A DNA stretch of 60,126 nucleotides, filler included, from Squatina squatina (lineage: Eukaryota), in assembly GCA_031763465.1 (NCBI GenBank). It is 4 parts of 4 records of this genome, joined end to end, with 100 filler letters (N's around TTAATTAATTAA, not from the genome) between each part and the next. Parts side by side here need not be neighbours in the genome. Positions count along the whole stretch, not along the records: positions 14,078 to 28,564 come from JARFOE010000016.1; 3 more parts are not named here. One strand, written 5' to 3'. This document shows, piece after piece, positions 3,628 through 43,843 of this stretch; positions within the stretch are counted from its first letter, which is position 1, and each line of letters starts with the position of its first letter. The notes beneath the pieces are model-generated. The model saw only the letters and a list, made by a program, of their open reading frames with translations, was not told the DNA's origin and ran no database searches. The position numbers were made by a program, and so were the translations under genes.

Positions 3628-3647
3628 CTCTTCTTAAACTCTTGTAG

Positions 3648-5815: not shown

Positions 5816-5967
5816 GACAAAATCAGAACTGGAACCAGGGATACAACAGCTACTGGAATCAAGGTTATAGTAGTTACAACAATGGCTATAGCAATCCAGG
5901 TTACAATNNNNNNNNNNGTATAACTACAACAACTACGGATAAGCTCCAGAATATGATACCTACAATA
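5816..5967 (+). CDS. HNRNPDL: hnRNP D-like Gly/Tyr-rich exon (10-N gap; in-frame TAA at 5940-5942)
   Basis: GQNQNWNQGYNSYWNQGYSSYNNGYSNPGYN..YNYNNYG*APEYDTYN. cttag acceptor, GTAAGT donor at 5968. Confidence 0.8.
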
Positions 5968-13815: not shown

Positions 13816-13977
13816 ATGTCGGAGGCGGTGCAGTTCTCCGCGGTGGAGGCCGAGGCTGCCGAGCAAGGCCTAGAAGAGATGGCGGCAGCTGCTGAGACGG
13901 GGGCGGCGGCTGGCATAACCGATCCAGCTTTGGAGGCCAAACCGACCGACGGGGGCGACGGGTCGGTGGCAGTCACC
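13816..13977 (+). CDS. HNRNPD: Probable hnRNP D0 (AUF1) first coding exon (truncated)
   Basis: ATG TCG GAG: MSEAVQFSAVEAEAAEQGLEEMAAAAETGAAAG..., an Ala-rich N-terminus like human MSEEQFG. Lies tandem downstream of HNRNPDL, as in other vertebrates. No RRM is visible to confirm the paralogue. Confidence 0.7.
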
Positions 13978-14077
13978 NNNNNNNNNNNNNNNNNNNNNNN
14001 NNNNNNNNNNNNNNNNNNNNNTTAATTAATTAANNNNNNNNNNNNNNNNNNNNNNNNNNNNNNNNNNNNNNNNNNNN
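13978..14077. other. Artificial scaffold linker
   Basis: N44-TTAATTAATTAA-N44, giving stops in all six frames. Confidence 0.97.
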
Positions 14078-15470
14078 CCATCAATGATCATAATGACCCT
14101 AAACTTCATCAATGAACATAGTGACCCCAAACACCATCATTGGTCATAGTGACCTCAAACACCATTAATGATCATAGTGACTCCAAACATCATAATCAGT
14201 GATCGGAGTGACACGAATCACAGTCAATAAAGATCCTCGCCCCAAATATCAGCCATGATCATAGTGCCCCCAAACTCCATCATCAATGATCGTAGTGCCC
14301 CCAAACTCCATCATTAATGATAATAGTGACCCCAAACACCTTCAATGATCAAAGTGAACCCAAACACAATCTGCAATTAATATAATGACCCCAAACATCA
14401 TCAATGATCACAGCGACCCCAAACATCATCAATGGTAATAGTGACCCCAACACCATCAATGATCATAGCGACCCCAAACACCATCAGTGATCAGAGTGAC
14501 TCCAAAAACCATCAATGATCACAGTGACCCCAAACACCATCAATATTCATCGTAACCCAAACACCATCAATGATCATAGTGATGTCAAACACCATCATCA
14601 ATGATCATAGTGACCCGAAACACCATCAATGAGCATAGTGACCCCAAATCCATCAATGAACAGAGTGACCCCAAATCCATCAATGTACATAGTGGCCCCA
14701 AACTTCATCAAAGCTCATAGTGACCTCCAAACAACATCAATTGTCGTAGTGACCCCAAACTCCATCAATGATAATAGTGACCCCAAACACCATCAATTAT
14801 CATAGTGACCCCAAATACCATCAATGATCAAAATGACCCCAAACATCATCAATGATCATAGTGACCCCAAACATCATCAATGATCATAGTGACCCCAAAC
14901 ATCATCAATGATCATACTGACCCCAAACAACATCAATGATCATAGTGACCCCAAAGATCATCAATGATCACAGTGACAACAATCATCATCAACGATCAGA
15001 GTGAACCCAAACACCATCAATGATCATTGTGACCCCAAAATCCATCAATGATCATTCTGACCCCGAACAGCATCGATGATCGTACTGACCCCAAACACCA
15101 TCAATGATCATAGTGACCCCAAACACCATCAATGATCATAGTGACCCCAAACACCATCAACGATCACAGTGAGCCCAAACACCATCAATGATCATTCTGA
15201 TCCCAAACAGCATCAATGATCACAGTGAGAACAAACACCATCAAAGATCATAGTAACCCGAAACATCATCAATTTTCGCAATGACCCAAAACACTGGCGA
15301 TGATGATAGTGACCCCAAAAGCCATCAATGATCATAGTGACCCCAAACACCATCAATTATCATAGTGACACCAAATACCATCATTGATCATAGTGACACC
15401 AAACACCATCAATGATCATAATGACGCTAAACTTCATCAATGATCATAGTGACCCCCAACACCATCAATG
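14078..15470. repeat. 28-bp tandem satellite/minisatellite, roughly 50 diverged copies
   Basis: Consensus CACCATCAATGATCATAGTGACCCCAAA, head to tail with no spacers. Confidence 0.95.
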
Positions 15471-17393
15471 AAATTCCTGAATCCCTTGGCTAAAAAAGTT
15501 GGATTTGCAAAATCTTATCAACCAGTATCTAACAAAATCAAAGCTGGCAGATAATCCTTGCAGATGTAGTGGTGGAATATATATTTTGAGCCATAATAAA
15601 AAATTGATAGAAACAGAGGACCATTTTGCTTTTAAAAATAGCTGTACACTTGAAGATATATACTAAATGGATATGCATTGACAGATATGCACTCAAGTGG
15701 AGTAACTGAAGATGATTGTATGCAGAACATATGACATTTGATCATGATGTTCTGTTCAACATTCAAGCAGCCAAATCTGATTAGAGAATCAATTCTTTGC
15801 ATGCTCATTGCTAATATAAACTCCAGGGATTTAATTTGACAGAACTATGCTCATTTGTTTAAAGCATTATTAAACAATTAAGGTGTCATCCATTGGGAAG
15901 CTATTTTCGGAACATCAAAATTAAGTTGACATATGTTGTTTTTCTGGATGACATTTAAAAATTACATGTTCACCTGTACCTGCTATGTATCAAGTTATTA
16001 AATCCATATGCTACTAAATGTCCTTAAAAAAAGTCCTTTACTTAACTCAAACTTGCACATATACCTGGAGGGAGTGATTTAGAACAAATCATTTGATTTA
16101 CAGAACACATTTTAATTAGCGATGAGATGTGATGTGAACTGGAAGTGATCTGAATTAGATCTTTTCAATTTAATTCATCAATACTCAAATTTGACCTTAA
16201 TTGGGCAATTCAGATTTGTTTGTCACTTTAATGATGCTGAAATGCAGAGAGAAATCAAACACAGTTTTGAGTATTGTGCTATTTGTTTTGTTACCATAAT
16301 GGTTAGGCTAAATTTCTCATTCATCTTCAAAAGCTTTGGTTATGAATTTTAAATCATTTTGAATTGAGTTAATAGATCACTGGGTGCAGTATTACCATAA
16401 ATCTATCTACCTGTCCCTCCCAAATTAATGTATATGAGCAATGCACAATTTTAAGGCCACTTATTCCCTCCAGGGATTGGATGGTGCATGATTATTACAG
16501 GACTACTAAAGTAACAGCAATTTGGATGCAGATTTATTCGGAATTATTTGCACCCCATCCCCATAGACACCAGACAATGGGTATGATGTTTTAAATTCTA
16601 TTAAAAAAAACTCTACTTTTTTTTACTGTGGCTTCTAACACAGATAACACTCATTTGTCCCTTGCCTTCACAGTGGGGAAATATAGCAAGCTATATAGAA
16701 CGGCAGTTCTTATCCACAGACATATTTGATGCATCTGCACTCCTCTCTGGAAAGTTGTGTGTCCTTGCTGTGGTATGATTTCATGAATGTTCATCACCCT
16801 CTTTCACTTCACCCAAATGGTCTCTATTTGTGTGTGAGCCTTGATGGTATGTTGGTAGCTTATTCAATTGAGCCAAACAGAGCTGAGTCTGATCTTGTCT
16901 TCGTCTGCTCACTTCCATCACTGGTCCTTAGATAGTGATCAGGAACAAGAAACCCTAGCCAATTTTCTTCTCCCTGACTCAGAGATCCAACCAATGACGG
17001 TCTGAATTGAGAATGTATTGTGGTGAAATTTTCTATCCTTTGTGAATGCCAGAATTTTTTTCCTATCTCCGTTAGCAGCAAGTAGCAAGAGATCTCAAAC
17101 ACCTCGGGGACTAAATTCAATAGCCCCCAAAAATGGGCGTGGGTATCACGATGCGCGATTAGCCCACGCCCGTTGAGTCCAATGCAGACAGCATGCTAAC
17201 TTCATGCTGCCTGCCACTTAAAATGATTGCAGCTGTGAGGAAAGCGCTAAACATGCTTCAAAAGGGGGCCCAAGTTCGTGTGAGGCTCGCACNNNNNNNN
17301 NNNNNNNNNNNNNNNNNNNNNNNNNNNNNNNNNNNNNNNNNNNNNNNNNNNNNNNNNNNNNNNNNNNNNNNNNNNNNNNNNNNNNNNNNNNNA

Positions 17394-17640
17394 AGAGCAA
17401 GGGCAGCAGGTGCATGGGAACACCACCACCTGAATGTTCCCCTCCAAGCCAAACACCATCCTGACTTGAAATTTATCACCCTTCCTTCATCATCCCTAGG
17501 TCAAAGTCCTGGAACTCACTATCTAACAGCATTGTGAGAGTACCTTCAACACACAAACCGCAGTGGTTGTCAAGGGCAATTAGTATGGGCAATAAATGCT
17601 GGCCGTGCCAGCGATGCCACAATGAATAAATAAAAAATAA
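17394..17640 (+). mobile_element. Non-LTR retrotransposon 3' end
   Basis: Ends gggcaataaatgctggcc...gccagcgatgcc. Related copies lie at 19917-20360 (-), about 27240 and 38290-38360 (-). Confidence 0.7.
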
Positions 17641-18479
17641 AAATGCCACAACCCAAGAAAGCCTGNNNNNNNNNNAGCCTGGAAACTTTATGGAATGCAA
17701 TAAAAACATTTTATATTAAAAAAAGATTCTGTCCCTCAAAAAGTCCACGGTACTTGATTATTGAAAACTATTTTCCACTGACATATTTTATTATTTCTTG
17801 TAAGTGAAACAGTAGACAGACTATAAGATCACATGATATTCCCTTTTCTCAACAAAACAGATTATAGGCTTGGTGATGCATATGTGACACTGCAGATTTT
17901 CTTTACAGAGGCTCCATCCATGCTGTGCTGGTTTTCTTTTCAATCTTAGCTCTTGTATTCTAACACAGTAGTTGAGTAGCAGAGGTCAAAATGTGATGCG
18001 CTGGTTTATTATTTCTTCTTTTCAATCACAATTCTATCACCTTTTGGGACCTAAAGTGAAGCAACATGAAAAAACATGCACACGTTATAAGGAAAAATAA
18101 CATGGAAATGAAGCCATTATCCTACTACTATATAAATTCAAAGAAAATCTTGTCAAACGGATTTATATTAAGCAGTTCTTTTATCTAAAAAAAATATATT
18201 GAGTGAAATGTAATCATTGAGTAGAACTGAAAAAAATTCACAGGGATGTAAAGACCAGTTAAAACATAAAATTTTAAATAGGCTAATATGTTTTGCTGAA
18301 GTAAAATACATAGTGACGGGGAAGAAATTGATAACGGTAAGCATTTTAGTGAAAAGTTGATTGAAATTTGCAAATANNNNNNNNNNNNNNNNNNNNNNNN
18401 NNNNNNNNNNNNNNNNNNNNNNNNNNNNNNNNNNNNNNNNNNNNNNNNNNNNNNNNNNNNNNNNNNNNNNNNNNNNGAG

Positions 18480-19020
18480 GAACGGAGATGATGGAAATTG
18501 TAGAACTGGAGGAGGCTACAGCATTAAAGTGGGGTGAAGCCATGGAGGGATTTAAACAAATTGATGAGAATTTTAAATCTGAGGCAATGGGGGTCCAGGA
18601 GCTTATTTAGGTCAGTGAGGACAGGGCTGGTGGGTGAATGGGATTGGTGTAAGATAGAATGCAGGTACCAGAGTCTTGAATGAACTGTAATTTAGAGAAT
18701 GTAGAATTGTACACTGGCCAGGAGAGTATTAGAAAAGTAGAGTCTGGAGGTGGCAAAGACATGGATGAGAGGTTCAGCGGCAAATGTGCTGAGGTAGAGC
18801 GTGGAGATGGTCGCTGTTACAGATATGGAGATAGGCATTTCTTCGTAATGAGATAATATGGAATTGGAGCTCAATTTATGAATGAATAGGATGCTGCAAT
18901 TCTGGACAGCAATGAAGAGGCATTGGAGGAAAATTGTGTGATTGACTACATCAAAGGTTGCAGAGGGGTCGAGGAGGACAAGGGGCATAATACACTATGG
19001 TCACATTCACAGAGAATAGA
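18480..19020 (-). mobile_element. L2-clade LINE reverse transcriptase remnant
   Basis: LVLLDPSATFDVVNHTIFL (compare LDLSAAFDTVDH) and AEPLIHVFATSRLYFSNTLLA (compare LIHAFVTSRLDYxN). Confidence 0.8.
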
Positions 19021-19720
19021 GAAAATGATTGGTAGAAGAAAATTTCATTCCAATTCAGAAGGTATATATTGTTAGTTATATTGCTCTTGGTTCCAATACT
19101 AGTGTTACCACTACCGTTTGTCTAATATGGAAGGAGAGAATATGCAGCTAGGTGGAGAAGGCCCTTTAAAAATTTCTCTACGGATATTCTGTATAATTTG
19201 CTTGGCAGAAGATGTTCATATTGACAGCTACTTAGCCAATCCATTTAAAACTGCATCTGCAATTAGCTGTGTTTTTAATTGGTTCTGGTCATGTATTGAT
19301 TCCCTATCCTTAGGTTCTTCTTTCTTAATTAAATAAGGTCACATTTTAAGATGCAAGATAATCATTTGCATGTTACACAACTCAAAACATAAAAGGATCC
19401 ATTGTTCAATTCACTATTTTAACACAAAATATGATAAATCATCAGAGGTTTGGATTCTTCAAAAACGCCGGTCATGGGTCATCTCTCACCCACTGGGTGA
19501 CAGATTGTGACACCAAACAGTATCTCATACAAACAGAAAGCAAGGAAATTGCACAATGGCATCTTCTGCTGAATAGTTCAATAATTGTATTAACACAAGT
19601 TCGGCATTCGATTCGGCACACATATGTAGAACACAGAAGTTGTACGCCATTCATGTGGATGATGTATGTAATTGGTTTACTTAATGCTTGATAAATACTT
19701 ATTTGTTTCTGTCTTCACAG

Positions 19721-19810
19721 GAGACAAAGAAGATAAAGTACTAGAGATTTGAAGAAAACTAAAACTAAATCAAGGGGAAGAACTGACTAGATTTAATGAG
19801 TAAAGAAAAG
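19721..19810 (+). other. Candidate upstream exon of the ninjurin-like gene
   Basis: Strong acceptor (tttctgtcttcacag) and donor (AAG|GTAATG), with ATG at 19796. The phase does not join directly to the 22814 exon, so the link is unproven. Confidence 0.3.
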
Positions 19811-19916
19811 GTAATGNNNNNNNNNNNNNNNNNNNNNNNNNNNNNNNNNNNNNNNNNNNNNNNNNNNNNNNNNNNNNNNNNNNNNNNNNNNNNNNNNNNN
19901 NNNNNNNNNNNNNNNN

Positions 19917-20360
19917 ATCGTTGGTACTGCCAGAATTTCTTGCCTGTCCCTATGGTGGTGGGCTGCCTTCTTGAGTCGCTACATTCATTGTGGCGATGGT
20001 ACTCCCTTGTGGTGAAGGTATTGGGTAGGGAATTCCAGGATTCTGGCCTTGTGATGATGAAGGAATTGTGATATATGACCAAGCTAGGATGGTGTGAGAT
20101 TTGGAGTGGAGCTTGGAGGTGGTGGTGTTCCCACAGCATTGCTGCTCTTGGTCTTCTTGAAGGTAGAGGTGGCAGAGGAGGGAGGTGCTGTCGAAGTAAC
20201 CTTTGTGAGGTGCTGCGGTGTATCCTACAGATTGTGCACACTGTGGACATGGTGCACCGGTGGAGGGAGTGGATATTGAGTCCTGCTCTTTTAGCCATGG
20301 TATTGATGTGGCTGGTCCAGTTCAGCGTCTGGTCAGTGGTGACCCCCAGGATGATGAGAA
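19917..20360 (-). mobile_element. Non-LTR retrotransposon ORF2 end and 3' UTR fragment
   Basis: ILGVTTDQTLNWTSHINTMAKRAG and SWNSLP motifs; same family as 17394-17640. Confidence 0.8.
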
Positions 20361-20580
20361 GCACTGGACCACCCATAGAACTGTACTCTAGAATGAGCCA
20401 CAGCCATCAGGACAGGAAGAGAGCAAACTGAATGGAATCTTTCTACAGTGAAATAATTGGAGCAAAGTTAAGACAGAGTACGAACTGTAGGGAGAACCCT
20501 TGCCATCCAGTTCAATCCTTGAGTGAAAAAATAAGTGAGTTATATATCTCAGTATTTTTCTCTTTATCGTTGATATTTAT

Positions 20581-20726
20581 CTCATTGCTGTTTGTGTGAA
20601 AGTTGGCTACCACATTTTCCTACATTGCAACAGTGATCGCACTCCAAAGGTACTTCATTGGCTGTGAGCACTTTGGGACGTCCTGCGGCCGTGGAAGGTG
20701 CTATATAAATGCAGGATCTTTCTTTG
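20581..20726 (+). mobile_element. Deu-SINE / L2-derived 3' tail
   Basis: cctacattgcaacagtga...ttcattggctgtgagcactttgggacgtcctg...gtgctatataaatgcag-tcttt. Confidence 0.65.
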
Positions 20727-20899
20727 TTATGTTAAAGCCTGTTTTTGTCCAAACATTTGTGTTACAAAGCAGTGATCACATTTTGTGGAACAGGCTCTGA
20801 CAGGGTAAAATTCCTATCTGTAAATTAGTCAGTGTGAGCATGGGATGCCTATTTTGTAGTCACTCCAGCATTATTGCTAAGTTGGGAGCGGGGTTAAAC

Positions 20900-22290
20900 T
20901 AATTTGACAGGGGAGAAGCATTAGAGAGGAGAAACAAGGTGCACAGAATACTGGGATAGGCAAATAGCACTAGAGCAAAGATAGTTCAGAAATAGGAGGG
21001 ATCAGACAGGGAGAAAATGTGAGGCAGTCTAAGCTGAGTTCGGAGTGCATGTGCACAAATGCATGTAGCACGGTAAAAAGCTTAGTGAGCTGCAAGCACA
21101 AGTTGCCACATGGGACTATGATGCAACGGCAATAACAGACACCTGGCTCAAAGAAGGGGAGGATTAGGAGCTTAATCTTCCTGGCTACAAGGCACTTAGC
21201 AAAGATAGCGAAGGGAAGGTTGGGGAGAGGGGGGAAGGGGGCATGGCCAATGTTCTCGCTAAGGTGTGCTTGCGGCCATGCAGTAATCTGAAAGTTCCCG
21301 TGCAGGCCGCTCACTGGCTTTTACTTTGTAAATACAGCACATGCGCAGACATTTAATGGTAGCGCACATTTAAAGAAACAGGCCAAGCAGAACAAAGCGC
21401 AGCTTACAGGAAACATTGGGGTGACAGTATAGATCAAAGAAACTGTGATAGCACTGGACAGGAATAATGTGTTGAGGGGTCAAAGACAGAATTTATTTGG
21501 TTAGAGTTAAGGAATAATAGAGGAGCTATTATGCTGCTGGGTGTATACTTATAGACCACCAAATAGTGGGAAGGAGAAAGAGGAGTAAATTTGCAGGCAA
21601 AATACAGAAAGATGCAAGAACTATAGAATAGTGATAATGGGGGACTTCAATTATTTCAATTTTGACTGGAATAGTAACAGTTTAAAGGGCAAAGAGGGGG
21701 AGGAATTCCTGAAAGTGTATAAGAGAACTTTCCTGATCAGTGTGTTTCTATCCCAACGAGGAAGGAACAGTGCTGGATCTGGTTCTGGGGAATGAAGTGG
21801 GGCAAGTGGAGCATGTTCCAGGGGGAGCATTTGGGAAATAGTGATCACAATATTATTAGGTTTAGAATAGTTATGGAAATGGTAAGGGAACAATCAAACA
21901 TAAAAACACTTAACTGAAGGAGGGCTAATTTTAGCATGTTAAAAAGGGATCTTGCTTAGGTGGATTGGAATCAAAAATTGGCATGTGAAACAGTAATTGA
22001 TCAATGGGAGGCCTTCAAGGAGGAGATGTTTTGGGTACAGAACAGACACTTTCCCACATGGGGGGAAAGGAAAGGCATCCAAAGCCAGAGCTACCTGGAT
22101 GACTAAAGAGATGGAGATTAAAATGAAACAGAAAAAGGAGGTTTATGATCAATGTCAGGTTTGTAATACAGGAGAGAATCGAGCTGAATACAGAAAGTAC
22201 CGAGGCAAACTGGAAAAGGAAATAAGGACAAAGAGAGTGCGTGAGAAAAGAGTAGCATAAGAGGGAACACTAAAGTATTTTATAAACACA
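20900..22290 (+). mobile_element. CR1 LINE ORF2 5' part (APE endonuclease), degenerate
   Basis: Motif remnants in order: NA-x-S, AITDTWL, YRPPNSG, VIMGDFNY, LDLVLGNE, EHLGNSDHN, WMTKE. Confidence 0.88.
21248..21418. mobile_element. About 170-bp MITE (hAT-like TIRs) nested in the CR1 element
   Basis: Imperfect TIRs CAATGTTCTCGCTAAG ... CTTACAGGAAACATTG. Flanking 8-mers ggcatggc and ggggtgac match at 5/8. A related end lies at about 28262-28354. Confidence 0.65.
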
Positions 22291-22813
22291 TAAAGAGTAA
22301 AGTACATAGAATTACGTTACATAAAATCTTACAGCACAGAAACAGGGCATTTGGCCCAAAGGTCTATGCTGGTGCTCCATACGAGCCTCCTCCTCCCTTA
22401 CTCCACCGAGTGAAAGTGTCGTCAAAGGAAGGCTGGGGCTGATTCGGGACCAAAAAGGAGTTCTTCATAGAATCATAGAAACTTACAGCACAAAAAGAGG
22501 CCATTCGGCACATCGTGCTTGTGCTGCCTCTTTTGAAAGAGCAGCGCTGCTAAGTNNNNNNNNNNNNNNNNNNNNNNNNNNNNNNNNNNNNNNNNNNNNN
22601 NNNNNNNNNNNNNNNNNNNNNNNNNNNNNNNNNNNNNNNNNNNNNNNNNNNNNNNAATGGCGGAGCAGGCTTGAAGGGCCGTATGGCCTATTCCTGCTCC
22701 TATTTTCTATGTTTTGTTCAAATTTATGAATGGCAGAACAGGCTCGAGGGGCTGGATGGTTTACTCCTGTTCCTATGTTCCTCAGAAAACAACCATTTAT
22801 TTATTTTCCACAG

Positions 22814-22877
22814 GCCAGAAAAAAAACATCCCTTTATTTATTCAAATTTGGATGCAGAGACAGAGACTAACGAGGAG
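22814..22877 (+). CDS. Ninjurin-like gene, probable N-terminal exon (64 nt)
   Basis: ttttccacag acceptor and GAG|GTAAAA donor. PEKKHPFIYSNLDAETETNEE ends in phase 0, in frame with the 25832 exon. Confidence 0.5.
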
Positions 22878-24201
22878 GTAAAAAGTAAGAAACTTGCTTC
22901 AAAGTTAAAAGTTGATAGCATAAACAGTATAAGAGCAAAATAACTAAGGGATTGCAGTGCTTGGAGGTGTAAGCTGTGAAATTTGGAACCTGTGATTTTT
23001 TTATTTCTGACAGGAGTCCAATTTTAATTATTTCTTTTCCAGCCAGAGAACCGGGGGCAAAAAGGTCTAAATAAATTGTAAAACTTGCCTGTACAGTTAA
23101 AAGTTAAGAAGAAATACCTGTAAATTTGGTGCTCTGGAGACTAAACTAGGAAAACAGCCATTTATTTTTGTCACAAAGAGTGAATACGTTAGCACCACTG
23201 ATGGAGGAAATGTATAATGCGGGCATTACTTCTGAATATGTAAATTCAACCCATTGTGGTATTGNNNNNNNNNNNNNNNNNNNNNNNNNNNNNNNNNNNN
23301 NNNNNNNNNNNNNNNNNNNNNNNNNNNNNNNNNNNNNNNNNNNNNNNNNNNNNNNNNNNNNNNNGGCTTCCGCGCCAGGCGCAGGAAGTCCCGCCTCACC
23401 AAGGTTAACGCCCCCAAACAGGGTGATACGCACTTTCGCCCCCATGATATCTTCCCTGCTCTTGGAATAGATCAGGTTCCCTCGCCAAGTTTAATATAAT
23501 TATAATTATAATGATCAATATTCAAAAGGATAGCACCTTCACGAAAAAGCTATTAACCAAACTTTAAATTGCTTGGGAAGGAATATGAGACAAAAGTATC
23601 TGTCACTGTTATCATTGTGTAAATGGTCCACAGGTCAACATGATACTACAATTGGACACATTTAAATATTGTTGTGTTCTGTGTTTGTGAAGGAATGGAG
23701 ATAGGTTTGACAAATAAATTAATAATTGATGTGGTATTCATCATGGCTAATAATTATGTAACTAACAAGTAATTACATCCAGGGTAATGCAAAGGACACA
23801 AAAAAAATGTAAGAGGCAGCTAAAAGCTTTCAACAGCTCACATGAGTCAGCAACTCTGGAGCTTTCATTCAATGTAATTGTAAAAGAGAAACGCCACACC
23901 ACGGTGTATAACGAGAGTACCAGAATTACAGCACATTCATATTTTGCATTTACTGCCACTGATACAGTGAATGTTAACCATGGCTTAAATTTCCTGAAAC
24001 AGACACGAGCCATAAAGCATACTGCTTTCACTACTGTTAGCAACAGCTTATGAAAATTCCAGAAGGATTTGGAAATTGATTGTGCATCCATAAAACCTCA
24101 TNNNNNNNNNNNNNNNNNNNNNNNNNNNNNNNNNNNNNNNNNNNNNNNNNNNNNNNNNNNNNNNNNNNNNNNNNNNNNNNNNNNNNNNNNNNNNNNNNNN
24201 N

Positions 24202-24930
24202 TCTGGTGGAGAGGGTGATGGCCCCAGGGGAGTCCTGCACTACCTGCCTTCTTCCACTGTGCCTGGCAGTCACTTATTTCCATCCTGTCTGTGCAGTCTT
24301 TACCTCTGGTGTGACCGCATCACTAAACGTGTTATCCAAGTACATCTCAGCATCGTGGATACTCCACAATGAATCCATCCACAGCTCTAGCGCCGCAATG
24401 CGGTCTGCCAGTAGCTACAGCTGGATACATTTCCTGCACAGGTGGTCACTAGGGACACTGGGATTTCCCACATAGCGCAGGAGGAGCATGCCATGAGGCC
24501 AACCTTTCCTGCAATGACTTACCCTTAGATTAAGCTCCTCAGTTACTGCCTTTAATTAAGAGTGCTAATTACACTAGGGACCTTATTCCACTCCAAACAC
24601 TACTTACTACAATCTAAAGACCCTACCTTTACTTTTACTTAAGCTAACGAAGTTAGTAAAAAATGGTAGATATACCCACCTGTTCCCACTTACCAATCAG
24701 CTGCCTCCCCTTGCACCGCATCACTTTCTAAACTGTGACGTCAGTCCTGGAATTCATTCGCTGTCCCCTGTCTGGTCCTGCCGCCGCCGCTGCCGTTTGC
24801 CCCCTCGCAGGTCCGCTGCTCTCAGTGGAGTGCTGGGCCTCTCCTCTCCTATATGCCTCACTCTGTCGCTGCTGCTGCCACTGCCGCCGCTTGCCCCCTC
24901 ACAAGTCCGCTGCTCTCTGTCTGGTTAAAA
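24202..24930 (-). mobile_element. CR1 LINE 5' UTR and ORF1 fragment
   Basis: The minus strand gives CSSCAMWE...DHLCRKCIQL..LADRIAALEL...VTARHSGRRQVVQDSPGAITLS, typical of the CR1 ORF1 zinc finger and coiled coil. GC-rich tandem units at 24780-24920. Confidence 0.8.
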
Positions 24931-25831
24931 CTGGTGTGGACACTCATTATGCATAAATCATTACTCATTACGCTGGACCTCTGCCCATTTTTACAGCCGT
25001 CATATCACTTCCACTGAAACGAGTTATAAACTTAAAATGTAATGTTTGAATTTCACTCCCTTAGTGGAGACACAACATGTTCCTTGCTGGAGAGGCTGCC
25101 TGGAGCTTTAAGCCGTTACTGGCATTACAGCAGCAATTATTTCCTATTCACTGCCCCAGCCCCTCAAGTGGTGAGTTCCCAAGTATAAGGCAGGTGTCAC
25201 CAAAAATATTTAAATTAGTCTGACCCCAAAAAGTTCATTAAGATCCGTGTCAAATCCTTCAAGTGTATAAGAATCCTGCCCTGTCATACTTACAACAGAA
25301 CTCATACCAGACAGGAAAATCTAAAGTCCGTAGAGCTCACATTCACTGTCACTTACTGACATGTTTGTTGCCTCTCCATTATATTCATTTTTTTTCCATG
25401 CAGGGCCTCTTAAGTAAAATGGGCTTGTCAAATTTGTGACTCAACCACTTTGCATCAATATCCAGCATTCCATAATTACATTACTGAACTTTCCATTACT
25501 TACACCAGTTACGTGAATTGTTAGCTGCTTAAGAAATGTCAATGGATGATTATTATAGGTGTGTCATGGTTGGCTACTCTTTCATTCCTGCTAATGAAAT
25601 AACATTCAACCAAATTACACCTTTCAAAACTGCACACTGCTACCCTCTTGTTAGTAGACCAGAAATGAAATAGAGCATTTAGCCACCTTTGAATAAAGAA
25701 AGAAAATATGGCCTAAGGTGTTTTATAACAGTGAGTTTGTATTTTTTTTAATTCCTAATTTCTTTAGACATCTGCCATTCTGCTAAATTCAGGGATGATA
25801 TACTGTATTTACAGTCTATTTTCTGTTCTAG

Positions 25832-25984
25832 GTAATAAGGAACATCAACACATATGCCAGAACAAAGACTATTGCTCAGGGCTTTCTAGATATAGCCCTA
25901 TTTACTGCGAATGCATCACAGATGAAACATCTCCTGCAACAAGGCCCAGGGATACAGTTTTACTATTTCCTATTTGTTCTATTG
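25832..25984 (+). CDS. Ninjurin-family protein, amphipathic-helix exon (153 nt)
   Basis: VIRNINTYARTKTIAQGFLDIALFTANASQMKHLLQQGPGIQFYYFLFVLL aligns without gaps to human NINJ1 NVNHYASKKSAAESMLDIALLMANASQLKAVVEQGPSFAFYVPLVVLI. ttctag acceptor, TTG|GTGTGT donor. Confidence 0.88.
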
Positions 25985-27685
25985 GTGTGTATGTGAAATA
26001 CTTTTTATTATATAGTACCATTAAAGTGGCCTCAGGACCCACTGTTCAGCATCCATTGCATGTGATGGGACAACTATTGAAAGCAAAACAGTGTTTTTTT
26101 ATGCAAACTATGAATTCACTACAACATAGAAAATTACATTTGCTTATGGGTGTGATTGTATATTGGTTATTGATAAGGAGGAGAGAGGTGAGTGCGGGCG
26201 CAGCTGGGGATTTTTATTTCAGCACTTAAATTTCGCGGGGCCGAGGTCGGGANNNNNNNNNNNNNNNNNNNNNNNNNNNNNNNNNNNNNNNNNNNNNNNN
26301 NNNNNNNNNNNNNNNNNNNNNNNNNNNNNNNNNNNNNNNNNNNNNNNNNNNNNNNNNNNNNNNNNNNNNNNNNNNNNNNNNNNNNNNNNNNNNNNNNNNN
26401 NNNNNNNNNNNNNNNNNNNNNNNNNNNNNNNNNNNNNNNNNNNNNNNNNNNNNNNNNNNNNNNNNNNNNNNNNNNNNNNNNNNNNNNNNNNNNNNNNNNN
26501 NNNNNNNNNNNNNNNNNNNNNNNNNNNNNNNNNNNNNNNNNNNNNNNNNNNNNNNNNNNNNNNNNNNNNNNNNNNNNNNNNNNNNNNNNNNNNNNNNNNN
26601 NNNNNNNNNNNNNNNNNNNNNNNNNNNNNNNNNNNNNNNNNNNNNNNNNNNNNNNNNNNNNNNNNNNNNNNNNNNNNNNNNNNNNNNNNNNNNNNNNNNN
26701 NNNNNNNNNNNNNNNNNNNNNNNNNNNNNNNNNNNNNNNNNNNNNNNNNNNNNNNNNNNNNNNNNNNNNNNNNNNNNNNNNNNNNNNNNNNNNNNNNNNN
26801 NNNNNNNNNNNNNNNNNNNNNNNNNNNNNNNNNNNNNNNNNNNNNNNNNNNNNNNNNNNNNNNNNNNNNNNNNNNNNNNNNNNNNNNNNNNNNNNNNNNN
26901 NNNNNNNNNNNNNNNNNNNNNNNNNNNNNNNNNNNNNNNNNNNNNNNNNNNNNNNNNNNNNNNNNNNNNNNNNNNNNNNNNNNNNNNNNNNNNNNNNNNN
27001 NNNNNNNNNNNNNNNNNNNNNNNNNNNNNNNNNNNNAGCGTTATGGGCTCTGCGCCTATTTTGCACCAGCGCAAACGGGACCCAAATTTTGCGCCTGCGT
27101 TTTAGCGACAAAGGTGGCTTAGCGCCAGTTTTGCGTCACTTTCACGCTCGAAGTTTTACCACAAATTGGCTGCCCTTAATGTCCTCTGGATTGCATGGGC
27201 ATCTCATTCAGTTGTAAAAGCAATTACTATAGCAACTATGGATGGGCAATAAATGCAGCCCTGTCAGTCTCACCCACATGCCGAGAACAATTTTTTAAGA
27301 AAACTTGATTTGGTTCTATTTGTGTAAGGTTCATATACAATACAAACCTTTGTGTATTGAGAGGATTGAAGTAATATGGGTTCGGCTATTCAACATTTGA
27401 ATTCACTTTTTTAAATGAATTAAATCATCAAATAAGACAACCCATTTCCTCTTAAACTGCTCACTTGTGAGAAATGTATAGATAGAAGTGCAAATTTCAT
27501 TCTAAAGCAAAGCAATGGTCTATTTAAGAATGTTTCAAAGACTTCGCACTAAAGCGTAAGTATATATCAATGATAAACCATTTTTATATCGAGAGTGATT
27601 CGTGAAATATTAGATAAAACAATGGGTTGTTGTGCACTGTCATACACTACAGGTTTTTCCAATGTTAACGTTTGTTGTTTTACAG

Positions 27686-27786
27686 TGCATCTCCATCATA
27701 CTTCAGCTGATTGTTGCAGCCCTGTTAATTTATAAAGGATCAAAGAACATAGAATGTGATGATCCCGAACGCAGGCTCAGTGACAG
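27686..27786 (+). CDS. Ninjurin-family protein, TM1 and loop exon (101 nt)
   Basis: CISIILQLIVAALLIYKGSKNIECDDPERRLSD(R) continues the NINJ1 alignment (SISLVLQIGVGVLLIF). ttttacag acceptor, AG|GTATAT donor. The TM2 exon is not in this scaffold. Confidence 0.82.
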
Positions 27787-28564
27787 GTATATTGGTTCTT
27801 ACCATAGATACGCAGCTTGTTCTTTGAAGATTTGTCTTGTCTTTCACTTGGTAGCCCCTATGTTAAGATTTAATTTGAAGCAGACAAGAATTTCTTATGT
27901 ACTAGGTATGTCAGTAACACAGTTGAATAAGAATGTGGGGATAGAGTTGTGCTAGAAAAGTTTCCAGCGCAATTTGCCCAAAATTGGCCATATCAGCGCA
28001 AAAAATTCAGAATTTCAAAGAGCATGTTGCGTTCAGCACAAATCGAGTTTCCGTGATCTTTTGCGCTAGTTTAAAAAACATCGCACTGGAAGCTGGCCCC
28101 GCCCACACAACTGGCCACGCCCCCAGATCGAATTAATCACACATGGCGAATTTCCGTTAATTCTGCCTGTTTATGGGCTTTCGACGCTCTGAAACTTAAG
28201 CTTTTGAATATCATGTTTTAAATTTACTACGAAACTGACTCCACTTTTTTTGGCGCCACACGGCCTCTTTAAGGGATGCAGCGTTTTGTATTGACAGGCC
28301 GGCTGCACGGGTTCCCTGGAGCACTGCGTGGCGGCGCAGTTTACAGGAAACATTCTGTACACTAATAACTAGCAAATGGTCCTGCATAGTTTTTTAAAGT
28401 CTTTTTCAGTTATTTAAAATTGAGTTACTCATAGATGGTGGACTAAGCACTCTGATTAAAAATGCTTATTTTTTGTGATAAACCCATTTTCAGTTATATT
28501 AATCAAACTGGACCAAGTTACCACTCTTAAATATATCAAAGATTATTATTTAAACTTAAAATAA

Positions 28565-28664
28565 NNNNNNNNNNNNNNNNNNNNNNNNNNNNNNNNNNNN
28601 NNNNNNNNTTAATTAATTAANNNNNNNNNNNNNNNNNNNNNNNNNNNNNNNNNNNNNNNNNNNN
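28565..28664. other. Artificial scaffold linker
   Basis: N44-TTAATTAATTAA-N44. Confidence 0.97.
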
Positions 28665-29040: not shown

Positions 29041-29174
29041 CTGATGCTCCTTGAGGTACATCTTCTGTGCGTGCAGAAGAATTTGCTCCATCCTGGTTGT
29101 TATCAGGATCTGCCATCTTCTCCTGTCGGCGAGCCTCAGATGCTCCTCTTTTGCCCAGGCCAGAGCCTCGCCGA
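29041..29174 (-). CDS. TRIP12: E3 ubiquitin ligase TRIP12, internal exon (134 nt)
   Basis: [45 protein letters not shown]. aatag acceptor, CAG|GTAAGA donor. Confidence 0.92.
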
Positions 29175-29379
29175 CTATTTTCGGGTATGGAGGAAAAAAA
29201 CTATCTGAAATTCTTTCCACTTTCTAAGTAATACAAAGCAATTGCTGTGGAGAGTCTGCAACTCCAACTCGTGAAACCANNNNNNNNNNNNNNNNNNNNN
29301 NNNNNNNNNNNNNNNNNNNNNNNNNNNNNNNNNNNNNNNNNNNNNNNNNNNNNNNNNNNNNNNNNNNNNNNNNNNNNNN

Positions 29380-30228
29380 CACACAGCACAGGGTGCATAT
29401 TGTCACACAGCACAGTGTGCATATTGTCACACAGCACAATATACACATTGTCACACAGCACAGTGTACACATTGTCACAGAGCACAGTGTGCACATTGGC
29501 ACACAGCACAGTGTGCATATTGTCACACAGCACAGTTTACACATTGTCACACAGCACATTTTACACATTGTCACATAGCACATTTTACACATTGTCACAT
29601 AGCACATTTTACACATTGTCACATAGCACAGTTTACACATTGTCACACAGCACAGTGTGCTCATTGTCACACAGCACAGTATACACATTGTCACACAGCA
29701 CAGTTTACACATTGTCACACAGCACAGTATACACATTGTCACACAGCACAGTGTATACAATGTCAAACATCACAGTATATACATTGTCACACAGCACAGT
29801 GTATACGTTGTCACACATCACAGTGTATGTGTTGTTGCACAGCACCTTGTCACACAGCACAGTGTACACATTGTCACAGAGCAAAGTGTGTACATTGTCA
29901 CACAGCACATTGTATATCTTGTCACACGGCACAGTATAAACATTGTCACAGAGCACACTGTACACAGTGTCACAGAGCAGAGTGTATACATTGTCACACA
30001 GCACAATGTGCACATTGACACATAGCACATTGTACACATTATCACGCAGCACAGTGTACACATTGTCAAACTGCACAGTATATACATTGTCACACAGCAC
30101 ACTGTATACCTTGTCACACAGCACAGTGTACGCGTTTTCACAAATCACAGTATACACATTGTCACAAAGCACAGTGTATACATTGTCACACAGCACAGTA
30201 TACACATTGTCACAGAACACAGTGTATA
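29380..30228. repeat. 24-bp minisatellite, about 35 copies, in a TRIP12 intron
   Basis: Unit TGTCACACAGCACAGTGTACACAT. It produces the 8-aa periodic ORFs (TLSHSTVY, VYTVLCDN). Confidence 0.95.
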
Positions 30229-31328
30229 AATTGGTATGTCTACACAATGTTCCAAATACCAAGCTCAGATTACAATTTCCTTTGCTTTTTTCAATTCCTC
30301 TCCAAAATTATACTTATTCTCTACTGAACAGGATAAGACAACCTTCTAAGCCACTGATGCTCTATATTTAGTCAGCTGGTGTGTCTTACTGGCCCTCATT
30401 TTTGCACCTCAAGAAATGGACCATCTTCATGTAACAGTTAGTTTGAATGTAGCTACCCTCCATATACCTCGTGAGTTCAATTCACCAATATCACAACTTT
30501 AAAAGTACCCCTTTAAAAAGCTTTTCTAACTTCAGCCTCAAGGGCCATATTATCTTAGCTTGTACAATCAAGTCAGCCTTTGAAGTATGCTGTAGTTTCC
30601 TAGGGAAAATGCAGATACTGGTTCTAGTTCAGAGTTTCGTGGGGTGAACCAAGTTACACTATTTTCAATATTAACTAACAGGAAAAAAAACTCTTTTCCA
30701 AATTAAATTCATTTAACTTTGATCACAAACTACAGTTGAAGCTCAGGTTTAATACAGCATTTCGTTTCAATAGGGCACATCAGTAGCACAAAATCCAGAT
30801 CAATTACCTAGGTTAAGCAAGTGCAAGAATGTAGAACAGAGGTCACAGACTCAATAGCTGAACACTCAGTTAAACTATTTACTCTGATCAAGGACCAGAC
30901 TTTAAACCTTTCCCTCGATCTAGGAAAACAGAACAGCCAGCAATAATTCTCAGCACTAGCGTATGTTTGGGAAAGGGTCAAATGTCTTAGTGCTTGAATG
31001 AATTGTTTTCCTAATATCAAGTCACAAATGCAATTTATTNNNNNNNNNNGACAGAAAATTACCCAAGGCATGGCATTGAAGAACACACACACATTTTGCT
31101 TTTCAATAAACATAGGAGTACACACTGGTAAGGATATTTCATACTTGTGACAATGCCCCAGTTTAGCTGGCTCTCACCATTTAAGGTTTTGGTTAGTTCA
31201 GCATTTCATTTGTGAATTGTTTACAAAAATGGATTCAACAGTTCCAAAATTGAACATTTTAATACAAAAGGTTTTAATTTGTTGCATTATCTAATAAAAA
31301 ATACAATCAATTAATTTCATCCACTCAC

Positions 31329-32258
31329 TGGCTAACTTTGCTTGTAGGCCTGAAGGCCCTGGTTTTGAAGTCTCCGATTTGGAAGACCCTGGGAGTGACA
31401 GTTTTGCTTTTGGCAGGCTAACTTTAGGGCTAAAACGAGCAGCCCACTCAAATTTGGAGGAACCACCAGTTTTGCTCTGCTCCTTTTCCCGACTGCTTCT
31501 GCGAGGGCTGGGGCTAGAGGCTGAGCGGGAACGACGAGCCTTATTCTGATCTTTTCCTTGTTTTAGCCTGGCTCCCTGAGGCACAGCAGCAGAAGAGGAG
31601 GATGATGTAGAGGCAGAAGAAGAAGAATCAGTGACAGTGCTACACCCAGCTTTGGCTGAGGTCGCTGATTTTGAAGCCAGCTTGGTTGGTTTAGCAGGCC
31701 TNNNNNNNNNNNNNNNNNNNNNNNNNNNNNNNNNNNNNNNNNNNNNNNNNNNNNNNNNNNNNNNNNNNNNNNNNNNNNNNNNNNNNNNNNNNNNNNNNNN
31801 NGGTTGGTTTAGCAGGCCTCTCTTCAGCACTGATCGAGTCAGCCACAGAATCACTATTTACAGCAGAAGTAGTAGTTTCAATCTTTTTCCTTTTTTGAAA
31901 TGGGGAGGCGCCAGCAGGCCCAGTCTGTTTTCTGCTCTGGGTCTTACTCGTTGATGCTACCTGGGCAGTTCTTATCTGCTGATCTTGCACAGACTTCCTT
32001 TTCTTTGGGGACTTTGTTTGCACCTTGTGTTTTTGTGTTTCAGTAGGATTCTCTGAGGGTTGAAGTGCTTTGGGCCTTTTTGCAGAGCAGGTGGAGTTTG
32101 AACTGCTGTAATCAGGACTTGGACCACGTTTCACACCTCTCAAGCTACTTTTGGAGCTGTCCCTTTTAGGTTGTCCCGTTTTGGGTTTTTCTGACCTAAT
32201 TCTATCTTCTTGCTGCGGCACAGAAGCAACCGATGAAGAGCTACAGCTCCTTGAGTTC
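31329..32258 (-). CDS. TRIP12: TRIP12 large N-terminal disordered-region exon (internal N gap is spurious)
   Basis: RSCSSSS...[11 protein letters not shown]...[24 protein letters not shown]...[15 protein letters not shown]...[11 protein letters not shown]. ttttcag acceptor at 32260-32259, GTGAGT donor at 31328. Confidence 0.95.
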
Positions 32259-33844
32259 CTGAAAAGACAACATGGAACGATTACATGTGCCTCTATGGCA
32301 ATGGCTATACATACAACTCAGTAACTGAGCAGAAGCTTGACCACGGCTGTAGATTTTCAAATGCATTTTGCAGTGACTACTTCCAATTTCCAAATGCCAA
32401 GATCCTGACTAGCATGAAGCTGAATTTATCAACCNNNNNNNNNNNNNNNNNNNNNNNNNNNNNNNNNNNNNNNNNNNNNNNNNNNNNNNNNNNNNNNNNN
32501 NNNNNNNNNNNNNNNNNNNNNNNNNNNNNNNNNNNNNNNNNNNNNNNNNNNNNNNNNNNNNNNNNNNNNNNNNNNNNNNNNNNNNNNNNNNNNNNNNNNN
32601 NNNNNNNNNNNNNNNNNNNNNNNNNNNNNNNNNNNNNNNNNNNNNNNNNNNNNNNNNNNNNNNNNNNNNNNNNNNNNNNNNNNNNNNNNNNNNNNNNNNN
32701 NNNNNNNNNNNNNNNNNNNNNNNNNNNNNNNNNNNNNNNNNNNNNNNNNNNNNNNNNNNNNNNNNNNNNNNNNNNNNNNNNNNNNNNNNNNNNNNNNNNN
32801 NNNNNNNNNNNNNNNNNNNNNNNNNNNNNNNNNNNNNNNNNNNNNNNNNNNNNNNNNNNNNNNNNNNNNNNNNNNNNNNNNNNNNNNNNNNNNNNNNNNN
32901 NNNNNNNNNNNNNNNNNNNNNNNNNNNNNNNNNNNNNNNNNNNNNNNNNNNNNNNNNNNNNNNNNNNNNNNNNNNNNNNNNNNNNNNNNNNNNNNNNNNN
33001 NNNNNNNNNNNNNNNNNNNNNNNNNNNNNNNNNNNNNNNNNNNNNNNNNNNNNNNNNNNNNNNNNNNNNNNNNNNNNNNNNNNNNNNNNNNNNNNNNNNN
33101 NNNNNNNNNNNNNNNNNNNNNNNNNNNNNNNNNNNNNNNNNNNNNNNNNNNNNNNNNGCTCAGACAGCCCCTTATTTCTTGCCAAGAAATTGCAGGCTAT
33201 GATGGATATGTAGCCACACTTGCTAAATCTAATTGTTAAATAGCATCACAGCTGTTAACGCTTCAGTGGCTGCTGGTTGTGGTAAAGGGGTACAAAGTTA
33301 TACTCAAATCCCCTACGTACAAATAGCTTCCTCTCATTTAGAAGTGTTTTGCTCCTACTCCTCCCTTCCGGGGCAGACTTCTTCCCCAATTTACCCCTCA
33401 TCACTTCAACTGCTTAAATGTTCATGGATCCAATTCTGCTACATCGTAGGGGCAAGAACTAGTGATCTCTCAGCTAAAACATGGAACGGGGTTCAATTTC
33501 CAAGTTAAGCAGCAGCAGGAGAAAGGAATTAGGAGCATAAATTAGAATTAACTTGGGAAGTTTGGGATTTACAGATTACATGAAAAAAAAGTGCAGTCAC
33601 AATTCTCCAGCAGCCTGAAACAGAAAAAAGGAATCCAGAAAAAGTAATGTATCCTGCAGCAATTCCAATAGGGCATTATGGAGGCCACATCATTTTCACT
33701 TGAGTATAAAATCCTGCAAAGGCCACTTGCTCAATAAATTTGCTTTTGGAAGATTGGTATGTCTTAAAGTATGTAGTTTAACTAATTTCTATCAAATATA
33801 AAGAGTCATGAAAATTTATGCTGTTAAGCAAAATATTTTAATAC

Positions 33845-37114: not shown

Positions 37115-37210
37115 ATGGCGTCTTTGTTACAGGGCACAATTTTTGAAATCAGCGCTCAAGCTCCAGCCCCAAGTAAGGATTATCATCACCTGCTTGTTAC
37201 AGATTCAAAG
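37115..37210 (+). CDS. FBXO36: F-box only protein 36, first coding exon
   Basis: MASLLQGTIFEISAQAPAPSKDYHHLLVTDSK, compared with human MASWLPETLFETVGQGPPPSKDYYQLLVTRSQ. AAG|GTGAGT donor. Head-to-head with TRIP12. Confidence 0.9.
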
Positions 37211-37573
37211 GTGAGTATGTCAGTCGAGAAATTCGCTCGACTATCTTGTCGCGTTGACCTGGCGCAATACATCAAGTTNNNNNNNNNNNNNNNNNNNNNN
37301 NNNNNNNNNNNNNNNNNNNNNNNNNNNNNNNNNNNNNNNNNNNNNNNNNNNNNNNNNNNNNNNNNNNNNNNNNNNNNNCTAGGTCTTTATATCGAGTTTC
37401 CAGGCCTCAGCCACAAGCACGGATATAGCGTTCATCATAGAGGCTTTACACACTCCCCACCCCAGATATTGAAACCTTTAATAAAATCATATTTTTTTAA
37501 AGAATAAAGGTTAAAGATAATGATTATTGTAATGAAAATTTCTAACTACCTGTTTCTTTGTTTTGAACTTTAG

Positions 37574-37746
37574 TTCACATTGCTGTAATTTTTGGCAATG
37601 AAACCCTCGAGTACATTTGTAAACTGTGTCAACATCAGTTTGATTATCTCGAACGCCTTCCTAAAGGCCTGCTCATGTATATAATTTCATTTTTGGAGCT
37701 TGAGGACATTGCCAGACTTTCCCAAACATCCAGACAATTTGAAAAG
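37574..37746 (+). CDS. FBXO36: FBXO36 F-box exon (173 nt); the preceding exon is missing in the gap
   Basis: HIAVIFGNETLEYICKLCQHQFDYLERLPKGLLMYIISFLELEDIARLSQTSRQFEK. tttag acceptor, AAG|GTAAAA donor. Confidence 0.92.
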
Positions 37747-42865: not shown

Positions 42866-43843
42866 CTGTATTGCAGAAAAAGAAAAGATCTGAATTAACT
42901 GGGCAGAAAGGATAGCAAACAAGATAGACAGATATTAGGCATTGAGATGTATAGATGTATTCCATAAGGCAAAAAGAGAGAAGTAGCAAAGAATAGAGTC
43001 TCAATGATAAATAGAAAGGTTAAAACTAAATTGAAACTGAAAAGGGAGGGATATGATAAAATTCAAGCTAACACTACGAAAGATAATCAGGAGAAACATC
43101 GAAAGTGTAATAAGTAGGTGAATAGAATGATCCGATGAGCTAAAGGGATTCTGAAAAAAAAACAAGTAGATTATATAACATGAAATTGTCAGGGGGTTTG
43201 TAAGCNNNNNNNNNNNNNNNNNNNNNNNNNNNNNNNNNNNNNNNNNNNNNNNNNNNNNNNNNNNNNNNNNNNNNNNNNNNNNNNNNNNNNNNNNNNNNNN
43301 NNNNNATGGCCACTGGACAGCCACGTCTGTTCAATAAAATCAATAGAAAGGAAGCTGAATAAAGACAAACAGCTGACTGTTACCCCTTCCTGAGGTACCC
43401 GGTGCTTATTGCAGCAATTACAGGAAAGAATATTCTGTTCTTTGGAAAGCATATACCTGTTCTTTATAAACACATTGATGACCTAGAATGTAGAAGAAAT
43501 TTTCCCCAATATTTTTTGGAGGATGTGATATTAACCCACATATCCTCTTCAGTAAAGTGTGCTCAGACACCTGATCTTACAGTAATTATACATCCCTTTA
43601 GACATGTTACTATCACTTCCATCGCTTGTGTTGCTAGGTTTGATTTATTTCAGCTGAGTTGATTGTTTTCTATCTTTTTTTTGACCTTTATAGAGTTGCA
43701 GTTACAGACGGATAACATCAATGCGCAGTGAAGCCCATAAACTAACATGACAAGATGGCCTTTAAGTGTAACTACCTTTGATGGAGGAATAGCTTTAAAC
43801 AATTTATTCATTTCATTTATAAAGAAGAGTATCAAACGGAGCC

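Follow-up and report, generated by a model that had tools for sequence, protein, structure and literature searches.

Two coding exons in the Squatina squatina genome point to an ancient third lineage of vertebrate ninjurins

Gene Organization at the Locus

The window analysed here, a stretch of 60,126 nucleotides joined from four parts of the Squatina squatina assembly GCA_031763465.1, carries two coding exons of a ninjurin gene. The features of this region are:

22814..22877 (+): PEKKHPFIYSNLDAETETNEE, the previously proposed ETETNEE 'exon', with a donor GT starting at 22878; rejected as part of the gene, a unit of a degenerate AT-rich repeat
25832..25984 (+): coding exon, the second coding exon of the orthologues; 51 codons, phase 0/0, flanked by AG and GT
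25985..27685 (+): intron inside the first transmembrane helix (TM1), at a point corresponding to the I84/S85 boundary of NINJ1, with GT-AG ends
27686..27786 (+): coding exon, the third coding exon of the orthologues; phase 0/2, flanked by AG and GT
28609..28620 (no strand): TTAATTAATTAA, a linker between runs of N, where the scaffold piece ends

The exon at 25832-25984 encodes the amphipathic N-terminal helix and the first part of TM1, and the exon at 27686-27786 encodes the remainder of TM1 and an acidic loop. Both are open. The first-pass annotation had recognized a divergent ninjurin here, and the Pfam Ninjurin HMM indeed matches both exons over contiguous spans, 1–47 (E 6.7e-18) and 48–77 (E 0.0055), i.e., positions 1–77 together; the upstream exon alone reaches 64.9 bits, above the curated PF04923 cut-off of 26. 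Its peptide is identical to 7 cartilaginous-fish records and that of the downstream exon to 10 records. In Heterodontus, Cetorhinus, and Carcharodon, RefSeq proteins contain the two directly joined and without a mismatch. Records P0003, P0005, and P0012 part from the downstream exon exactly past SDR. The donor of the upstream exon is weak (GTGTGT), and the intron includes a 784-base N gap. The suggestion of an intron within TM1 holds, as the same break recurs in chimaera, frog, and eel records (chimaera and others read through its donor) and a frog isoform (P0203) skips an exon with exactly the boundaries of 25832-25984. In turn, NINJ1 possesses no intron inside TM1 but one just after it, a position partly supported by record P0114. 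In one insect-type pair, the TM1 break lies seven codons further on than in the gene described here.

Of the three in-frame, lesion-free exons originally proposed, the two above stand and the first does not. Anchored at the junction, the product of 22814-22877 matches at 0–1 of 21 positions in every comparison with the 12 orthologue N-termini; the catshark reference N-terminus has 13–20 of 21 residues in common with 9 of the 11 other orthologues, those of axolotl and lamprey being shifted by indels. The alignment of unit 1 with unit 2 of the AT-rich repeat beats 200 of 200 shuffles, and the segment adjoins a dispersed repeat family (D7). The mismatch and the repeat nature led us to reject it as the orthologous first exon. 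Four distinct stop-free AG-GT candidates ending in phase 0 are located upstream.

Neither the true exon 1 nor the exon encoding the second transmembrane helix (TM2) was found in the window by profile search (best E 0.052 and 0.071, respectively, vs 1.4e-38 for exon 2) or by tblastn. This gappy scaffold piece lacks the genuine first and last coding exons, their places coinciding with N gaps and a scaffold end: the piece terminates at 28609, so that the TM2 exon and the true neighbours lie outside the window. The same linker is present at 14022 and 45929. Since linkers join its pieces, the window is a mosaic and in-window synteny was dropped as unusable. No other gene was identified in the scaffold piece bearing the ninjurin exons.

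Phylogeny and Distribution of the Lineage

In a tree built from 140 columns, 16 rows form one clade (support 100/99) outside NINJ1 and NINJ2, which group together with the cyclostome rows at 96/93. The AU test rejects joining the clade with NINJ1 (p 4.7e-5, the NINJ1 rows themselves being unresolved in the free tree) and with NINJ2 (p 1.5e-4, with 8 of the 9 NINJ2 rows grouped and the unstable Leptobrachium row left out). The idea of an ancient third lineage nested in neither NINJ1 nor NINJ2 is thus upheld. Core identity of the lineage is 42–43% to NINJ1 and 39–42% to NINJ2 (39–43% overall), while NINJ1 and NINJ2 share 55–63%. Between shark and other vertebrates, the lineage retains 89–94% core identity compared with 75–86% for NINJ1, a difference that holds in all 6 of the roughly matched pairs compared.

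The closest non-vertebrate matches are amphioxus proteins (Branchiostoma P0047, P0204, and P0205; 136 bits, the best NINJ1 scoring 104). These share A95, a residue other than F at 127, R36, F51, and H116 with the lineage, yet core identity is 48%, the DEEPL motif is missing, G140 is kept, and orthology is not proven. The lineage groups with them on one side of a 96/94 branch, the direct sister branch being weak (90/39). Forcing all vertebrate ninjurins into a single clade costs 24.7 log-likelihood units but is not rejected (p 0.115), so that a firm pre-vertebrate origin is not established. The KT-x-AQG motif, initially taken as insect-like, proved to be ancestral: arthropod (NijA type) ninjurins possess it but keep G95, F127, and K44, and their rows fall on the NINJ1/2 side of the 96/93 branch, for which reason we rejected an insect affinity.

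Members of the lineage are encoded by lampreys, cartilaginous fish, bichirs, sturgeons, gars, eels, bony-tongues, amphibians, and crocodilians, mostly alongside a separate canonical NINJ1 in the same species. Protein searches found none in mammals, birds, turtles, squamates, or higher teleosts. A paralogue kept in cartilaginous fish and lost in mammals therefore describes only part of the picture, as the mammalian side agrees but the lineage extends from lampreys to frogs and crocodilians. The orthologues are RefSeq models named 'ninjurin-1-like' or 'ninjurin-2-like' (e.g., XP_072322892.1, XP_041047619.1, XP_017948848.2, XP_032816678.1), some of which match the window exons letter for letter. 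As to prior description, RefSeq already lists the proteins, though only with automatic names; the papers searched do not recognise them as a distinct group, and no paper naming it was found among them.

Such names, together with the two exons missing in the window, would also suit a reading without a separate lineage, in which the gene is a NINJ1 or NINJ2 orthologue that diverged fast or, in the Squatina squatina genome, a broken remnant. The contigs listed for the lineage gene and for NINJ1 are of equal length in 4 of 20 species (they differ in 16), and no chondrichthyan NINJ2 appears among the rows listed, which points the same way. However, both placements are rejected by the AU test, the core identities lie well below those between NINJ1 and NINJ2, intron positions differ, arowana and eel carry a lineage member beside a named NINJ2, both exons are identical to intact shark proteins, and the missing exons coincide with assembly gaps and a scaffold end. 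This explanation is already largely refuted and seems very improbable. Considering the exons, the clade, the coexistence with NINJ1, the strong conservation, and the residue pattern, the two exons very probably come from a gene that looks intact and is a member of a third ninjurin lineage, distinct from both NINJ1 and NINJ2.

Conserved Residues and Predicted Structure

The AlphaFold2 monomer of orthologue P0004, which scores 114 bits over the full Pfam Ninjurin model, consists of an unkinked long helix and two TM helices (residues 33–76, 83–113, and 120–152). The model is modest (pLDDT 63.8, pTM 0.46; the input alignment includes NINJ1/2), and an earlier one, built from 22 close sequences, was of low quality (pLDDT 53). 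The former is closest to inactive NINJ1 (9BIA, rmsd 2.0 Å); the six top PDB matches are all ninjurins, and ESM Atlas returned Ninjurin clusters only. We take PDB 8CQR, 8SZA, and 8UIP to represent the active NINJ1 filament, 9BIA the inactive dimer, and 8SZB NINJ2. A three-helix fold, with an amphipathic N-terminal helix and two TM helices, is predicted for P0004.

Among the NINJ1 residues given as needed for filaments and lysis in the available text of Degen (2023), K45 and D53 are kept in 28 of 28 lineage sequences and Q91, T123, K65, and F135 in 32 of 32, while I84 and I134 are conservatively changed. N60, Q63, and N133 are also kept, as are the dimer-pocket residues N119, N120, and Y/F41. 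For the window gene, the alignment agrees with the earlier reading that K45, D53, and N60 have retained equivalents and that G93 and G95 align to I and A. Nevertheless, G93I cannot serve as a distinguishing change because 15 of 33 NINJ1 sequences have I there. Position 95 is A throughout the lineage (32/32) and G in NINJ1 (33/33), NINJ2 (12/12), and other ninjurins (34/34), and position 127 is L in 32/32. As F127 is the top co-evolving inter-subunit partner of G95 in NINJ1 (Degen 2023, available text), the G95A/F127L pair reads as a compensated filament contact. The lineage-specific set further includes K44T, G140W, an acidic loop 4 residues longer than in NINJ1, and a conserved S-x-DEEPL[F/L] tail motif. 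Its signature is TKT[LI]AQGFLD with A95 and L127, compared with KKS-x-AESMLD, G95, and F127 in NINJ1. The dimer pocket is altered by K44T, E49Q, and D116H, and P79 is lost, NINJ2 likewise having no proline there.

Of the 36 members whose N-tail has at least 25 residues, 31 carry the tail pattern [DE][DE][DE]P[LI][LIFM], derived from this lineage itself, against 0 of 274 other ninjurins. The exon bearing it is absent from the window, and the motif is known from orthologues, where it is retained between lamprey and frog although the tail around it varies. It ends in LF in 22 of the 31 cases, in LL or LI (fitting the strict [DE]xxxL[LI] consensus) in 8, and in II in 1. By analogy with inactive NINJ1, whose N-terminus is on the cytoplasmic side, we infer the same side for this tail. 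The motif resembles EQQPLL/EREPLL, described as lysosomal signals in the available part of PMC4649669.

Possible Function

NINJ1 is the protein that bursts dying cells through plasma-membrane rupture. At rest, the lineage protein would likely be a NINJ1-like three-helix dimer, which likely polymerises into amphipathic membrane-breaking filaments; judging from sequence, dimer, filament, and lysis together appear rather probable. The acidic tail motif would steer the protein to endosomal/lysosomal membranes and not to the cell surface, a sorting that we regard as less likely than not; the predominant LF ending departs from the strict consensus. To the combined reading, a putative ninjurin that forms filaments and acts at a regulated and probably internal site, we assign a probability of roughly 0.4. 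A homologue from the fly, which presumably represents the ancestral type, is lethal to cells (as cited in the available text of PMC13503662). Both K45 and D53 are also present in non-lytic NINJ2, so that their conservation is no predictor of lysis, and the altered pocket and the changes at A47 and L57 count against it.

These changes are central to another possibility, namely a non-lytic, NINJ2-like protein that oligomerises and serves adhesion, signalling, or NINJ1 damping, e.g., by capping mixed filaments. Position 47 carries L/I in 28/28 members, bulky as in NINJ2, and A47L abolishes NINJ1 killing in cells; L57 is replaced by F in 32/32, as in human NINJ2, and both positions are named as possible reasons for NINJ2 being non-lytic (Degen 2023, available text). 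G140W, the loss of P79, and rupture-independent WNT roles of zebrafish ninjurins agree with such a protein, and conservation tighter than that of NINJ1 suggests a fixed partner. Yet 33 of 34 other ninjurins also have I/V/L at position 47, and the fly protein kills cells. The F117 position is L in 32/32 and not Gln, which distorts the filaments of human NINJ2 (its Q103 position is L in the lineage), and the G95A/F127L pair looks compensated. We consider a non-lytic role rather unlikely.

The protein could instead be a second, NINJ1-like executor of plasma-membrane rupture acting in other tissues or upon other triggers, its tail motif being a phosphorylation or endocytic turnover site. The kept lytic core residues, the prevalent LF endings, and the retained amphipathic helix (first-part moment 0.25–0.30 vs 0.14–0.15 in NINJ1, on a crude scale) speak for it, but plain redundancy with a co-present NINJ1 poorly explains either conservation above that of NINJ1 or an acidic P-L-hydrophobic motif kept from lamprey to frog; we find it rather doubtful. 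The internally acting, filament-forming ninjurin may also be extended into a second chordate ninjurin system predating vertebrates: an endolysosome-targeted rupture protein with an acidic dileucine-like signal, a re-packed G95A/F127L interface blocking co-assembly with NINJ1, and independent losses in mammals, birds, and most teleosts. This full scenario is speculative and, in our view, improbable.

The ninjurin literature, in the texts available, deals with two vertebrate ninjurins, NINJ1 being lytic and NINJ2 not, and argues the lytic determinants from that pair. That the third lineage is apparently missing in mouse, human, and zebrafish-type teleosts would account for its having been overlooked, and its presence in Xenopus and axolotl makes it amenable to knockout. 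Older and more conserved, it offers a natural test of what makes a ninjurin lytic, as it keeps the K45-D53 bridge, has both strongest-contact partners swapped, and carries NINJ2-like residues at positions 47 and 57.

Ninjurin exons and gene structure

The first-pass annotation had claimed three in-frame ninjurin exons, and two of them stand: 25832-25984 (exon 2, the second coding exon of orthologues) and 27686-27786 (the third). Both lie within the piece 14034-28608 and match Pfam Ninjurin, a check proposed in that annotation, and three RefSeq proteins of sharks contain their peptides side by side in identical form, which makes a shark the likely source. With 5,716 N in its 60,126 nt, the window is a draft with many gaps; TTAATTAATTAA linkers, each with 44 N on either side, occupy 14022-14033, 28609-28620 and 45929-45940. 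The scaffold pieces across them are unrelated, and gene neighbourhoods spanning them are artefacts.

Features of the window
1535-5970, plus strand: two-RRM RNA-binding protein exons (Pfam RRM_1), presumably of hnRNP A/B or D type
13816-13977, plus strand: CpG-rich first coding exon, Ala/Glu-rich, no Pfam match, cut by a linker
14078-15470: minisatellite array, 28-base unit
25832-25984: ninjurin exon, 51 residues, AG/GT ends, Pfam Ninjurin positions 1-47
27686-27786: ninjurin exon, 33 codons plus two bases, AG/GT ends, Pfam Ninjurin positions 48-77
29042-32260, minus strand: Ser/Lys-rich N-terminal exons, no Pfam match, which we take to resemble TRIP12
about 29380-30230: CA-rich minisatellite array, by eye
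37116-37746, plus strand: F-box exons (Pfam F-box), presumably FBXO36-like
41171-41443, minus strand: major-facilitator transporter fragment (MFS_1, E 0.011), possibly SLC16A14, a neighbour of FBXO36
about 43750-44805, plus strand: candidate single-exon rhodopsin-class receptor, by eye, broken at 44413 by an N gap of 10 bases; no stop-free frame was found across it
53903-54067, plus strand: KDM3/JMJD1-family demethylase exon (PWWP_KDM3B, E 3.9e-8)

The TRIP12-like and FBXO36-like exons form a head-to-head pair.

The remaining claimed exon, 22814-22877 (encoding ETETNEE), was rejected as first exon: aligned from the junction, 0-1 of its 21 residues agree with any one of 12 orthologue N-termini, it is located in a degenerate repeat, and the upstream sequence offers four candidates that have a phase-0 donor, this one included. 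Neither the true first exon nor the TM2 exon was found within the window, which can be explained by the N gaps and the scaffold end.

Orthologue records break at three identical places. A Pelobates isoform omits precisely exon 2, the exon 2 donor is read through in chimaera, poison-frog and further records, and three orthologue records diverge directly after SDR; the proposed intron inside TM1 is therefore conserved. We take the NINJ1 intron to follow TM1, in agreement with an insertion at that point in one lizard record (P0114).

Phylogeny and distribution

The tree comprised 79 rows picked from about 380 proteins (140 columns retained), with near-identical orthologues standing for the window exons. 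The third lineage formed a single clade (16 rows, 100/99), separate from a second clade of NINJ1, NINJ2 and canonical-type hagfish and lamprey rows (27 rows, 96/93), which groups with arthropod, annelid and other rows (96/93). A 96/94 branch unites the third lineage with five amphioxus rows, two of which are long branches, while the direct sister branch reaches just 90/39. AU tests rejected trees that join it to NINJ1 (p 4.7e-5) or to NINJ2 (p 1.5e-4, one unstable row outside the group), and did not reject an all-vertebrate-ninjurin clade (p 0.115). The suggestion of a separate ancient lineage is thus borne out: the split predates the lamprey-jawed vertebrate divergence, and probably vertebrates. 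That these are mis-sorted NINJ1 or NINJ2 sequences, or a remnant, is highly improbable. The lineage shares 39-43% core identity with NINJ1/2 and is better conserved than NINJ1 in all six roughly matched species pairs. The amphioxus proteins (P0047-P0065, P0108) fall into several distinct ninjurin groups, an expansion.

With exon 2 as query, 44 of 48 candidates matched (identity 82-100%). A 22-sequence profile gave 152 matches among 8,000 scored candidates; the best 120 comprised 48 third-lineage, 3 amphioxus and 69 NINJ1, NINJ2 or unnamed rows, the latter scoring at most 104 bits among the matches listed. The gene had been thought kept in cartilaginous fish and lost in mammals. No mammal, bird, turtle or squamate member, nor any from coelacanth, lungfish or clupeocephalan teleosts, was among the matches listed in this word-indexed protein search, which does not imply loss, but retention is wider than cartilaginous fish: members occur in at least lamprey, chimaera, sharks, rays, bichirs, sturgeon, gar, bowfin, bony-tongues, eels, frogs, salamanders and crocodilians. 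The crocodilian proteins (P0024, P0045, P0046) are N-truncated or C-terminally frameshifted, which may reflect gene decay in archosaurs or annotation error.

Canonical NINJ1 accompanies the lineage member in at least catshark, horn shark, bamboo shark, numbfish, skate, chimaera, reedfish, Xenopus and axolotl. By-eye size comparison of listed sequences puts the two genes on separate ones in 16 of 20 species; in the other four (two lamniform sharks, two frogs) they share a sequence. Arowana and eel also have a named NINJ2; no chondrichthyan NINJ2 was among the best 120 of 1,137 matches.

Residue pattern and predicted function

Residues (marmoset NINJ1 numbering, matching 8UIP) were compared across 33 NINJ1, 12 NINJ2, 32 lineage, 3 amphioxus and 34 other rows, five of these 34 being named invertebrates. 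The lineage retains K45, D53 and N60, as first noticed, together with Q63, K65, Q91, N119, N120, T123, N133 and F135. Its KT-x-AQG motif had been likened to insect ninjurins; T46/Q49/G50 is present in 30-34 of the 34 others and is therefore ancestral. As for the changes at G93 and G95, only the second sets the gene apart, since 15/33 NINJ1 carry I at 93. At position 95, A stands in 32/32 lineage rows, where the 79 NINJ1, NINJ2 and other rows have G without exception; F127 is L in 32/32 and F in 75/79. The lineage alone carries G140W and an extended acidic loop. According to Degen et al. (PMC10307626), F127-G95 is the strongest co-evolving NINJ1 pair, bridging helices of adjacent subunits, and G95L is non-lytic. 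As a larger residue here faces a smaller one, the sequences suggest a filament contact kept but re-packed.

A47L/I and L57F count against lysis, changes at these positions being tied to NINJ2 inactivity in the same source; a bulky residue at 47 in 33/34 other ninjurins tempers the first argument. A non-lytic modulator of the NINJ2 kind is a possible, though somewhat unlikely, reading. K44T, E49Q and D116H fall in the dimer pocket described for NINJ1 by Pourmal et al. (PMC11711097).

An AlphaFold2 monomer of the orthologue P0004 (138-sequence alignment; pLDDT 63.8, pTM 0.46) predicts a long helix without a kink plus two TM helices. Its best structural match is inactive NINJ1 (9BIA, E 5e-6, rmsd 2.0 A), followed by filament structures, a likeness that is not independent because NINJ1/2 are in the alignment. 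An N-tail of at least 25 residues precedes the exon-2 peptide in 36 of 47 members examined, and an acidic motif, S-x-[DE]3-P-L-hydrophobic, is present in 31 of these tails against 0/274 other ninjurins; its exon lies outside the window. The motif resembles the proline-containing acidic dileucine signals that send transporters to lysosomes via AP-3 (PMC4649669), although 22/31 end in LF; by this analogy, a sorting role is a lead, short of a finding. A second surface executor is a possible, though again somewhat unlikely, reading. The reading we tentatively prefer (probability about 0.4) is a three-helix resting dimer that would open into amphipathic filaments as in NINJ1, with the tail retaining the protein on internal membranes.

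Literature searches, mostly of main texts in non-subscription journals and some of them off-topic, retrieved no described third ninjurin lineage, nor any match for "NINJ3" together with "ninjurin". Its proteins are already in databases under misleading automatic names. The third vertebrate ninjurin lineage is real, nameless and strongly conserved; its structural differences from NINJ1 and NINJ2 are open to test, and its function is a prediction.
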